64,000 nucleotides of DNA from the NCBI GenBank assembly GCA_963822445.1, contig CAWGHO010000003.1, positions 64,001 to 128,000 on the forward strand, read 5' to 3'. The stretch comes from an uncultured Acidobacteriota bacterium (GTDB lineage: Bacteria; Acidobacteriota; Thermoanaerobaculia; Gp7-AA8). The notes beneath the pieces are model-generated. The model had not been told where the DNA came from. It was given only the letters and a program-made list of their open reading frames with translations, and did no database searches. The translations under genes and the position numbers were made by a program. This document shows positions 55,650 through 58,007 of this stretch, one piece after another. Numbering within the stretch: position 1 is the first letter of the stretch; every line of letters begins with the position of its first letter.

Positions 55650-56309
55650 ATGGCAACGAAGCGGACCTACGAAGATGGATGCGCGACGGCCCACGCCCTC
55701 GACCTCATCGGCGAGCGCTGGGCCCTGCTGATCGTTCGCGAGCTGATCCTCGGTCCGAAGCGGTTCACCGATCTGCGAACCGGCCTGCCGAGCATCAGTC
55801 CGAACGTCCTCACCCAGCGGCTGGAAGACCTCGAACAGTCGGGCATCCTCCGCCGCCGCAAGCTCGCCCCGCCCGCCGCGGCCTGGGTTTACGAGCTGAC
55901 CGAGTGGGGCCTGGAACTGGAGAAGGTGATCATGGCCATCGGCCGCTGGGGCGCGCGCTCACCTCAATTGATGCAGGGTCATCCTTTGAGTATCGATGCG
56001 CTGGTGCTGTCGTTCCGGACGATGTTCGATTCCCAGACCGCCGCCGATTTCAACGCGCGCCTCGAGCTGCGCATCGGCGAGGATCGCTTCCACGCCGAGA
56101 TCGCGAACGGCGAGATGCAACTGAATCGCGGCCCGGCCGACCGCCCCGACGCGATCGTCGAGGCGTCACCCGAAGCGCTCATCGCGGTCGCTTATGGCGG
56201 AAAGAAACTCGCCGAAGCCGTGCGGGAGGGGGAGATGAAAGTCGAGGGCGACAAGGCCGTCGCGAAGCGGTTTTTCGGGCTGTTCCCGTTGCCGGCTCCG
56301 GCTGGCTAA
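55650..56309 (+). CDS. HxlR-family winged-helix regulator with C-terminal SCP2-like domain
   Basis: ALDLIGERWALLIVREL..GPKRF...YELTEWG. Confidence 0.92.
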   Translation: MATKRTYEDGCATAHALDLIGERWALLIVRELILGPKRFTDLRTGLPSISPNVLTQRLEDLEQSGILRRRKLAPPAAAWVYELTEWGLELEKVIMAIGRWGARSPQLMQGHPLSIDALVLSFRTMFDSQTAADFNARLELRIGEDRFHAEIANGEMQLNRGPADRPDAIVEASPEALIAVAYGGKKLAEAVREGEMKVEGDKAVAKRFFGLFPLPAPAG

Positions 56310-56355
56310 AGGGAACGACGAGAGCGCCTCCGGACATCTGAGCCTTCCTGTCAAG

Positions 56356-57600
56356 TCAGGCGGCAGCGTTGGCGAGGGTTGAGCCTCGCATAGCGAGCTG
56401 CTGCAGATAGCGAGCTTCGTCGTAAGCGGTGCGGCTGGTCCAGCAGGCGTAAAGTATGCGGATCCAACGGTAAGCGAGTGTGCGGATGGCCTGGTGGTGG
56501 CTATGTCCACGCGCACCCTGCTGTTTGTAGAGCGCTCGAGCCCAGACCGAGTAGCCGATCGAGACTCGTGCGTACTCGTGGAAGGTCTGACGCAGGAACT
56601 TCGGACAGGCCCAGCGCATGTGCACGACCGCCGTTTTGCCGCTCCGGCGGAGAACCGGGGCGATGCCGCTTCGGGTGGCGACGTTGACGGCGCTGCCGAA
56701 GCGCTTGCGATCGGTCCCGAAGGCGGCGGCGAGCCGCGGCGCGAGCTGTTGGCCGGCGCCAGGGAAGCTCGCGAAGATCGACGCGTCCTGGTGGGCGGCG
56801 AACGCCGCCGAGATCTTCTGGTCGTACGTGGCGATGCTCGCGTTGAGGGCCCGGATCTGCGCAACCTCGCTTCCGATCAGCAGCACGGCAGCGTCAGTGG
56901 TGACCTGATCGTCGTGGAACGCGACCTCTGAACGGATCTCGGCGAGCTTCTGGTCGATCCACGCGGCCGCGTGATGATGACCCGCATAGAACCTCCGTAT
57001 CGCGGACGGCCGAGCCCTTTGGATGGCCTCGAGCGTCGGCCAGCGTTCGAGGAAGTCACAGGCCTGCGCCGTAATCAACGCGCCGGCCCACCGGAGCGCC
57101 TGCGGGTAGTACGTCTTGAGCCGATCGGTCATGCGTTGGACGTGTTGCGTCCTCTGATCGACGAGCTCCCGCCGATCCTCGGTCAGAAGCCGCAGCAGAC
57201 GCGTAGAAGCGTCGTCGGCGATGAACGGGCGCAGCTCGTTGCGGTGCTTACGGAGCAGGTCGAGCAAGGACGCCGCGTCGGTCGGATCGTCTTTCGATAG
57301 GCTCGGATGAAACGCCTCACGATACCGGGCTGCACTGCGTGGGTTGATCGGATACAACGTGACGAACGGATAGCCGCTGAGCGCGTCGAAGACCGCGCCG
57401 CGGGACTGCTCGATGGCCACGGCGATCGGTGCCCCGCCGAAGCGCGCCTGCAGCGCTTCGATCCATGCGCGCAGAGCCGCAGGCGTGTGCTCGATGCGCT
57501 CGTTCGTGCACGTCTGCTGCTGCTCGTCCCAAAGAGCCACTTCGTGCGATGTGTCACCCCAATCCAGCCCCACAAACGCCCCAAACTCGAACTCGCTCAT
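56356..57600 (-). CDS. IS110-family DEDD recombinase
   Basis: VGLDWG, AIEQ, KDDPTDA (RuvC-like DEDD); SFPGAG, G.AP..RRSGK catalytic Ser region; GGAGG RBS before ATG 57600. Confidence 0.96.
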   Translation of the reverse strand: MSEFEFGAFVGLDWGDTSHEVALWDEQQQTCTNERIEHTPAALRAWIEALQARFGGAPIAVAIEQSRGAVFDALSGYPFVTLYPINPRSAARYREAFHPSLSKDDPTDAASLLDLLRKHRNELRPFIADDASTRLLRLLTEDRRELVDQRTQHVQRMTDRLKTYYPQALRWAGALITAQACDFLERWPTLEAIQRARPSAIRRFYAGHHHAAAWIDQKLAEIRSEVAFHDDQVTTDAAVLLIGSEVAQIRALNASIATYDQKISAAFAAHQDASIFASFPGAGQQLAPRLAAAFGTDRKRFGSAVNVATRSGIAPVLRRSGKTAVVHMRWACPKFLRQTFHEYARVSIGYSVWARALYKQQGARGHSHHQAIRTLAYRWIRILYACWTSRTAYDEARYLQQLAMRGSTLANAAA

Positions 57601-57860
57601 CACACCCTCCCTTCGGGTTGGCTTTGGCCGTGCGCAAGGCCTATAGTCGAGTCGTGCTCCGACAGCATCTGAGAATGCGTTTCGGGCCAAAGCACTTCGT
57701 CCCGCTCGAAAGTCCGGAGGGATTCGTCGATCCGAACACGGGCGGAATTCGTAGCGGGACGAACCCTTCTTCTTAGTATCGCGCCGTCTGAACTCGGTTC
57801 TCCTGATCGCCACGCAACGGGTACTTCTCTGAGGGCTGAGGGAGAAGCGGAGAGACGGCC
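57601..57860 (-). ncRNA. Predicted IS110 bridge RNA (ends approximate)
   Basis: Two similarly built internal loops whose guides match the target (CCUCCGG, CCGCCCG) and the donor junction (CUCAGAUG, CUAUAGG); 11-bp closing stem 57696-57706 / 57753-57763. Confidence 0.8.
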
Positions 57861-58007
57861 GGACAAGCTATAGGCGGGCCGGCACGGCCGGCAGCGCTGG
57901 TGTTCGCGTGAACGCAATCCGCGCTAGCTACCGCGAGTTCCGCAGAAGGCACAACCAGCGCCTGCCGGCCCGTGGCCGGCCCGCCGGAGGCGCTCTCGTC
58001 GTTCCCT

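Follow-up and report, generated by a model that had tools for sequence, protein, structure and literature searches.

In a 64,000-nucleotide stretch of DNA from an uncultured bacterium of the Acidobacteriota (contig CAWGHO010000003.1, positions 64,001 to 128,000; called here the window, in whose coordinates all positions are given) we identified an intact insertion sequence of the IS110 family, 1,543 bp long, at 57874..56332 on the minus strand. Its parts follow one another in the order CC, a 272-nt non-coding left end, a gene of 414 codons and a stop, a 22-nt right end, and CC again. It is very probably an intact IS110-group element that moves by bridge-RNA-guided recombination. Judged from its sequence, it is the published logic of IS621 in a very divergent orthologue of an already described family, and the element is genuine and probably active. 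The first-pass annotation of this DNA had read the same IS621-type logic, with a 414-aa recombinase and a 272-nt left end; both sizes are confirmed, and the logic is borne out by an IS110 recombinase, a two-loop covarying RNA in the left end and guides that change with the flanks.

The boundaries of the element are set by its copies. Nine full-length copies are present in the genome, and in 9/9 the ends and junctions are identical, the left junction reading ..G(C/G)CCCG|CC|TATAGC and the right CAGATGT|CC|GGAGGC, with the right end ...CTCAGATGT. In the window copy the left flank reads ...CCGGCCCG|CC|TATAG... (57882-57868, minus strand) and the right flank ...CTCAGATGT|CC|GGAGG... (56342-56327, minus strand). 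The dinucleotide CC flanks both ends in 9/9 copies and stands once in the empty sites, and since the two junctions have different bases beside it, the shared core comprises CC and nothing more; it had been proposed from the letters alone that the core differs from CT, and this agrees with it. No inverted repeat linking the two ends of the element was found, that is, terminal inverted repeats are absent. The element, its core copies and the host sequences around it are placed as follows.

56332..57874, minus strand: whole insertion sequence including CC at each end; nine copies end at the same bases
57873..57874, minus strand: left CC core copy; empty sites have one CC
57601..57872, minus strand: left end, 272 nt, putatively encoding the bridge RNA; sequence and copy comparison
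56356..57600, minus strand (codons 57600-56359): recombinase gene, 414 aa and stop; Pfam, NCBIfam and conserved residues
56334..56355, minus strand: right end, 22 nt, with a -35-like TTGACA (56354-56349) and the left donor word CTCAGATGT (56342-56334); sequence
56332..56333, minus strand: right CC core copy; junction sequence
57867..57872, minus strand: TATAGC, right donor word and putative -10 box of a circle-junction promoter; relatives keep TATAG[T/C] at their left boundary
57875..57882, minus strand: left target (CCGGCCCG) in the host repeat; guide match 6/7 here and 7/7 in 3/9 copies
56327..56331, minus strand: right target GGAGG; with the core, exact reverse complement of the right target guide
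56305..56333, unstranded: host palindromic repeat, arm to the right of the insertion; repeat search
57984..58012, unstranded: host palindromic repeat, other arm, with an inverted unoccupied copy of the target; repeat search

All nine full copies occupy the same site of a palindromic host repeat, whose arms in the window each span 29 nt and are 97% complementary. From composition about 8 occurrences of the reconstituted empty site GCCCGCCGGAGG would be expected in the genome; 41 were counted. Two variants of the left target are found, ..CGGCCCG|CC in 6/9 occupied sites (including that of the window) and 32 empty ones, and ..CCGCCCG|CC in 3/9 occupied sites and 8 empty ones. The guide CCGCCCG is the same in all nine copies and matches the CCGCCCG variant at 7/7 and the CGGCCCG variant at 6/7 positions. 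The one-G difference between guide and flank had been put down in the first-pass annotation to a possible homopolymer error; nine identical guides and two natural target variants, one of them matched 7/7, lead us to reject a homopolymer or polishing error at 57739-57745. As identical copies are found in both target variants, a guide mismatch at position 2 of 7 is tolerated. These copies with 0 differences form one set of three and one set of two, and the spread of each set over both target variants points to recent activity. As regards the arrangement of the repeat, fourteen unoccupied host repeats carry two inverted target copies 106-117 nt apart, and in 8/9 insertions the other repeat arm lies 30-119 nt upstream of the left end of the element. 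The host repeat resembles a repetitive extragenic palindrome (REP) or a MITE (a miniature transposable element with inverted repeats), lies between convergent genes and bears the target of the insertion sequence on each arm, in opposite orientations.

The window copy differs from each other full copy at 55-63 positions. Compared with the majority of the other eight it shows 54 differences overall, which fall at 1/150 positions of the bridge-RNA core, 7/106 of the 5' part of the left end and 46/1,245 of the recombinase gene, 30 of the latter at codon position 3; the protein has 16 amino-acid changes relative to copy C1_997700. The full 414-aa frame was present in all eight copies measured (of the nine). 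The near invariance of the bridge RNA and the mostly third-position changes of the gene indicate that RNA and protein are both under purifying selection. A tenth copy (G000:C3:469299-470841; loci L010, L012 and L014) sits in the same kind of target, with element positions ~414-581, within the recombinase gene, inverted between junctions at a short inverted repeat (GGATCGAA / TTCGAT); the inversion is either real or an assembly artefact. A rearranged remnant lies at G000:C1:940357-941431 (loci L011 and L013), where two partial copies that cover element positions 849-1543 and 1163-1543 meet head to head at 941051, and both end outward in right end, CC and GGAGGCC.

The recombinase matches Pfam PF01548 (DEDD_Tnp_IS110) with E = 1.1e-28 over profile positions 1-155 of 155, the N-terminal RuvC-like domain, and PF02371 (Transposase_20), the C-terminal Tnp domain, with E = 6.1e-11. 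It passes NCBIfam NF033542, 'IS110 family RNA-guided transposase', narrowly, at 143.2 bits for an equivalog cut-off of 140. In the alignment of homologues D13, E64, D104, D105, D108 and S320 are each kept in at least 36 of the 37 distinct proteins and are candidate catalytic residues; S320 aligns with the serine of the ESG motif of ISCro4, and the catalytic serine of IS621 is given as S241 (PMC11208158 / PMC11208160). In a sequence search of the PDB the sole structure matched was ISCro4 (9t56; E = 3.2e-4), through the Tnp domain only, and IS621 was not among the matches at E <= 0.001. This marginal, Tnp-only match marks the recombinase as a distant member of the family.

Directly upstream of the gene, the 161 nt of 57775-57615 fold with -62.8 kcal/mol (z = -3.54; 0/200 shuffles as stable) into two stem-closed internal loops with an inner hairpin in each. 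The whole 272-nt left end is no more stable than its shuffles (z = -1.07), and its 5' part is length-variable and fast-evolving, with a long predicted hairpin. The 11-bp stem that had been described around loop 1 was recovered (TTCGTCCCGCT, 57763-57753, paired with AGCGGGACGAA, 57706-57696), and so were the four guide words read on the minus strand, CCGCCCG at 57745-57739, CCTCCGG at 57720-57714, CTCAGATG at 57673-57666 and CTATAGG at 57646-57640. The parts of the predicted RNA are these.

57769..57866, minus strand: 5' part of the left end, variable and predicted to form a long hairpin; minimum-free-energy fold, copy differences, length variable among relatives
57612..57768, minus strand: bridge RNA core, match to covariance model R1 at 154 bits; model search
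57753..57763, minus strand: closing stem of the target-binding loop, 5' arm (TTCGTCCCGCT); fold and covariation
57737..57745, minus strand: left target guide CCGCCCG (57745-57739) and core positions UG (57738-57737); sequence and covariation
57723..57736, minus strand: inner stem-loop of the target-binding loop, UUCG/CGAA; covaries as UUCG/CGAA, UCCG/CGGA and ACCG/CGGU
57712..57720, minus strand: right target guide CCUCC (57720-57716), core complement GG (57715-57714) and handshake AC (57713-57712); sequence and covariation
57696..57706, minus strand: closing stem of the target-binding loop, 3' arm (AGCGGGACGAA); fold and covariation
57685..57693, minus strand: closing stem of the donor-binding loop, 5' arm (GCUUUGGCC); fold and covariation
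57664..57673, minus strand: left donor guide CUCAGAUG (57673-57666), then CU (57665-57664); sequence
57651..57663, minus strand: inner stem-loop of the donor-binding loop, GUCG/CGAC; fold and covariation
57638..57646, minus strand: right donor guide CUAUA (57646-57642), core complement GG (57641-57640) and handshake CC (57639-57638); sequence
57621..57629, minus strand: closing stem of the donor-binding loop, 3' arm (GGCCAAAGC); fold and covariation

One word of loop 1 equals the left target in the top-strand sense and another is complementary to the core and right target. In loop 2 the left donor guide CUCAGAUG equals the first 8 of the 9 bases preceding the right core, and CUAUAGG is the reverse complement of CC plus TATAG. 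All four words are thus present, and at least two of the four were found in 143/100,000 dinucleotide-preserving shuffles of 57775-57615.

For comparison with relatives we scanned one genome per species, which gave 72 loci encoding homologues. The closest are metagenome-assembled genomes of Thermoanaerobaculia (82-89% identity), followed by Vicinamibacterales (~52%), and further relatives at 35-54% identity belong to Acidobacteriota, Planctomycetota, Gemmatimonadota, Gammaproteobacteria and others. The covariance model R1, built from eight left ends, matches just upstream of the recombinase homologues, on the gene strand, in 31/32 sources (E <= 1e-4). In the model alignment standard pairs are made in 94.0% of 915 cells, against 73.4% after column shuffling and 29-42% with partners slid, and 24/30 pairs have changes on both sides; the same two domains emerged from an independent RNAalifold run on the eight seed sequences as aligned by MAFFT. 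Weak minus-strand R1 matches (E 3e-4 to 3.5e-3) over the first domain, that of the target-binding loop, were seen in L024, L025, L029-L031, L034 and L036, all of Vicinamibacterales; they probably come from the closing stem reading alike on both strands and were left out of the counts. The distance from element start to R1 start is 106 nt in the clade of the window, compared with 49-57 nt in L024, L025, L030 and L031 (Vicinamibacterales), which upholds the earlier remark on extra 5' sequence; it is 59 nt in the gammaproteobacterial clade and 186-201 nt in L034 and L036. The two last, also of Vicinamibacterales, carry ~130-150 extra bases, including a hairpin-like repeat, between ..ACCTCGC|CC|TATAG and the R1 start, an insertion within the left end.

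Among relatives the target guides change with the flanks of the element. The 7-mer given by the right donor guide had an exact left-boundary match at most 330 nt upstream of the R1 start in 31/43 loci, with a one-mismatch candidate in 6 more. No left junction was found in L023, whose contig begins within the left end, in L029, where TATAG has gained one base, or in L053, L068, L070 and L092; these loci are absent from the left test. The 37 loci with a left junction less 5 exact duplicates of guide and flank left 32 for this test, and 31 were reduced to 26 for the right one. When the seven bases before the core were compared with the left guide, a register of 0-2 bases being allowed, the left target guide matched its own flank at a mean of 5.34/7 over the 32 non-redundant loci (18/32 scored at least 6 and 26/32 at least 5), as against a mean of 2.86/7 in 984 non-cognate pairs, 2.8% of which scored at least 6; 0/10,000 permutations reached the observed mean (p <= 1e-4). 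The right target guide scored a mean of 3.73/5 over 26 loci, 12/26 being perfect, against 1.86 and 3.0% perfect in non-cognate pairs (p <= 1e-4). The covariation of homologous left ends with their targets, which the first-pass annotation had named as a check, is therefore found for the left and the right target guide alike. Individual loci illustrate it: L030 has the left guide ACCUCGC and the left flank ACCTCGC, L025 ACCUCCC and ACCTCCC, L043 CUGCCCC and CTGCCCC, and L022 UGGCCCG and CGGCCCG. On the right side the clade of the window has CCUCC-GG for CC-GGAGG, whereas Vicinamibacterales have GGCAU-GG for CC-ATGCC. The donor words are conserved among relatives and leave little donor covariation to measure.

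Furthermore, the two bases after each right guide were compared with the handshake of IS621, in which they are described as pairing with positions 6-7 of the other substrate following top-strand exchange (PMC11208160, PMC11208158). The loop 1 handshake AC pairs with GT at donor positions 6-7, the final two left-donor bases (2/2), and with this pairing the 9-mer CCUCCGGAC exactly complements the right junction GTCCGGAGG (repeat I4). The first base of the loop 2 handshake CC pairs with G at target position 7 and the second is unpaired (1/2). Among relatives the first loop 2 handshake base pairs with left-target position 7 in 17/28 non-redundant loci (p <= 1e-4) and the loop 2 handshake pairs at position 6 in 13/28 (p = 0.036), while the loop 1 handshake pairs at position 7 in 13/16 loci of standard geometry (p = 0.003).

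Both right guides have GG where relatives with a CT core have AG; L043, with a CT core, has the right end ..CTCAGACAT|CT|GCCAG, the right target guide CUGGC-AG-AU and the right donor guide CUAUA-AG. The CC core is common to the Thermoanaerobaculia and Vicinamibacterales loci (L021-L036), and because these are each other's closest relatives, it probably arose once. The other relatives appear to use CT, AT, TT/AT, GT or AA cores, a by-eye reading that is partly ambiguous. Such seemingly non-CC cores (AT, TT/AT, GT, AA; by eye) were noted in L037, L040-L042, L044, L055, L056, L067 and L045-L062; gammaproteobacterial loci show CT at the left junction and a right end ..GCGTG|TT.., so that left and right cores or their geometry may differ (by eye).

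The left guides treat the core more loosely. Among the eight aligned sequences the two bases that separate the 7-nt left target guide from the inner stem, at its core positions, read UG in the window, CA in L021 and L025, and CC in L022, L024, L030, L034 and L036, and UG is found also in L023 (model alignment); the first base, C or U in every case, can pair or wobble with the G of the bottom strand, and the second is free. The left donor guide of Vicinamibacterales, CUCAGAUG-UC, follows the donor without a break up to and including the first core base, like that of IS621, where the 8-nt left donor guide is reported to reach only the first core base (PMC11208158 / PMC11208160). For the window donor guide two registers are possible, a C.A mismatch followed by a U.G wobble, or a one-base DNA bulge with CU set against CC. 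The claim that both left guides have U at the first core position accordingly stands for the target guide (..GCCCG-UG) and depends, for the donor guide, on the register.

It is the second core position that departs from what has been published. In IS621 and related orthologues the core T at this position is called 'almost invariant', and the G63 main chain is reported to contact it (PMC11208160 / PMC11208158). The engineered cores of Durrant 2024 (PMC11208160), AT, GT and TT, all have T second in the accessible text. Its methods state that only 'CT core guides' were chosen for one analysis, wording which implies that other cores exist in those data. The phrase 'CC core' had 0 occurrences in the accessible text of the IS110 and bridge literature searched, CT being the sole natural core mentioned there; the supplementary tables stand outside that text and may already list this clade or CC cores. 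A C at the second core position is thus the one real departure from the published systems examined, so far as their accessible text goes. It is in our judgement evenly balanced whether the window element belongs, together with its Vicinamibacterales relatives, to a natural bridge-recombinase lineage that exchanges strands at CC and whose left guides need not pair with the core.

When right end, CC and left end were joined in silico, TTGACA, 17 nt and TATAGC came to lie across the core (by eye), and the geometry TTGAC[A/G], 17 nt, TATAGT is also seen in L030, L038, L043 and L059 (by eye). A circle-junction promoter has been described for IS621 (PMC11208160 / PMC11208158) and for ISPpu10 (10.64898/2026.03.19.712850), and a junction promoter that spans the donor words would explain why these are conserved. 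On the plus strand a promoter-like site at 57618-57647 (TTGGCT, 18 nt, TATAGT; 9/12) overlaps the donor-binding loop in antisense; its -10 complements the right donor guide, and it could be due to chance (0.2 expected in the region).

By analogy with IS621 we propose that the element would be excised as a circle, in which right end, CC and left end are joined and the promoter TTGACA, 17 nt, TATAGC would drive transcription of the RNA. A recombinase tetramer would bind this RNA, which would pair with the circle junction through loop 2 and with the host repeat through loop 1; strand exchange would take place at the CC core, and the handshake bases (AC of loop 1, CC of loop 2) would stabilise the exchanged top strands.

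Several observations weigh against this interpretation. In the window copy the left target guide departs from its own flank at one position, 2 of 7. Both left guides read UG against the CC core, giving a U.G wobble and then a G.G clash, and with the left donor guide CUCAGAUG-CU set against the donor CTCAGATG-T-CC a C stands opposite T beside the core. The putative -10, TATAGC, ends in C and so is without the final T required by the promoter scanner, and a scan of the integrated locus found no minus-strand promoter-like site. A search for RNA runs that contain the element gave none. Rfam 15, scanned permissively over 56000-58300, had no family that matched the left end; two chance matches below threshold, elsewhere in this range, were all it returned. 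The alignment A3 used for the structure was fitted to R1 and favours that structure. The boundaries of relatives were placed by rule, the left through the right donor guide (reverse complement of CUAUA and the two following bases) and the right four bases after a conserved CTCAG; the latter rule fails in seven gammaproteobacterial-type rows (right end CTCAGGGCG) and in the pseudogene loci L066 and L090, and these nine non-redundant rows, scoring 1-3/5, were kept in the counts as misses. Finally, guides and targets of related sequences are shared by descent and the covariation p-values therefore overstate their independence; many distinct combinations of guide and target are nevertheless present in the tests despite this kinship.

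If some of these weaknesses reflected loss of function, the element would be of the same kind but its lineage a decaying relic, with old copies and an RNA that has ceased to direct recombination efficiently. Such decay would fit left guides whose core positions do not complement the core (UG against CC), a left donor guide with a C.A mismatch and a weak -10, and it would likewise fit the facts that the window copy is the most divergent of the nine (55-63 differences), that the tenth copy has an internal inversion and that two partial copies lie head to head. Yet three copies are mutually identical at different loci and two others likewise, the complete frame is kept in every copy measured, and hardly any change is seen in the bridge RNA although the sequence around it diverges. 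Relaxed core positions in the left guide are moreover shared by relatives (CA, CC, UG), and active elements have natural guide mismatches, such as the G.G reported for ISPpu10 (10.64898/2026.03.19.712850), so we regard a relic as improbable. A different objection concerns the exchange point, which might not be CC at all but lie one or two bases away, the CC then being a microhomology or duplication of 2 bp. It draws on the poor pairing of the left guides (UG) with CC and on left and right 'cores' that read differently in some distant relatives; it has to contend with exactly CC being common to both junctions in 9/9 copies and single in the empty sites, with GG in the right guides where CT-core relatives have AG, and with the same CC in Thermoanaerobaculia and Vicinamibacterales loci, and we judge it very improbable.

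The structure in the left end could also be thought of as nothing but a 5' untranslated regulator of the transposase gene, acting on translation or stability, with the matches to the flanks due to chance or to subterminal repeats. Its position directly upstream of the ribosome-binding site and the gene is what one would expect of a regulator. However, in lineages with unrelated targets the loop words follow the host flanks, which lie outside the element; only 143 of the 100,000 shuffles yielded at least two of the four words; and covariation in the helices goes together with loop words that vary with the target. This leaves a mere regulator with next to no probability, and guided recombination by an intact IS110-group element is the interpretation we retain.

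As for the neighbourhood, a gene for an ATP-binding cassette (ABC) transporter ATPase/permease (58008-59855, minus strand) lies directly upstream of the element in the same orientation, and a gene for an HxlR-like regulator (55650-56309, plus strand) converges on it from the opposite side. The insertion splits a palindrome that may terminate both neighbouring genes, and we speculate that transcription of the transporter gene could run on into the integrated element.

Beyond its CC core the element is an expected member of a large and described family, and CC is its one feature of wider interest. The first-pass annotation, which presented it as a candidate new programmable recombinase, implied too much novelty: Durrant 2024 (PMC11208160) reports bridge RNAs predicted, from a large orthologue database, in 85.7% of the IS110-group elements of ISfinder, and NF033542 is already named 'RNA-guided transposase'. 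For annotation, the finding explains a repeated 1.5-kb element that is tied strictly to a palindromic host repeat in a Thermoanaerobaculia-like genome. Bridge recombinases are under development as programmable tools for the insertion, inversion and excision of DNA, and a review names the core dinucleotide among the constraints on their targeting. The characterised systems examined all use CT in their accessible descriptions; a compact, multi-copy CC element that seems to have been active recently and whose guide code can be read is a reasonable candidate for widening the target range, and it could show how the protein reads the core. If the CC lineage is real, it could offer recombinases for targets beyond those of CT-restricted systems, and core preference would be an evolvable property of the protein.

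Set beside known systems, the element has what marks the IS110 group, namely a long non-coding left end, a short right end, an RNA upstream of the gene and no long subterminal inverted repeats. The IS1111-group elements with seekRNA (Siddiquee 2024, PMC11187229) belong to the same transposase superfamily and likewise choose targets by RNA, but they are described as having the RNA downstream of the gene and subterminal inverted repeats (PMC11187229, PMC11208160), whereas in the window element the RNA is upstream, the right end has 22 nt and no such repeats were found at its ends. With ISPpu10 of Pseudomonas putida, reported to target repeated extragenic palindromes, often as convergent pairs less than 200 bp apart (10.64898/2026.03.19.712850), it shares by description the host arrangement, seen here as 14 unoccupied repeats with inverted target pairs 106-117 bp apart. 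ISPpu10 is also said to tolerate distal left-guide mismatches and to have natural guide mismatches (10.64898/2026.03.19.712850), and the window element is mismatched too; the core of ISPpu10, as given there, is CT and not CC. ISCro4 / IS622 of Citrobacter rodentium (PDB 9t56; Perry 2025 preprint) has the same IS621-type architecture, but differs in its reported CT core, in its 341 residues and in a similarity that is marginal and confined to the Tnp domain. The closest parallel is IS621 of E. coli (PMC11208160, PMC11208158), to which the RNA is likened by architecture. Both have a recombinase of DEDD RuvC-like and Tnp domains and an RNA in the left end upstream of the gene; both RNAs have two stem-closed loops, each with a sense left guide and a complementary right guide that includes the core, and two-base handshake guides after the right guides; and both elements have a 2-bp core, no terminal inverted repeats, insertion into palindromic repeats and, in the window element putatively, a promoter at the circle junction. 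Unlike IS621, the window element has CC in place of CT as its core, non-complementary core positions in its left guides, a left end of 272 nt as against the 191 nt given for IS621 (PMC11208160) and a recombinase of 414 aa.

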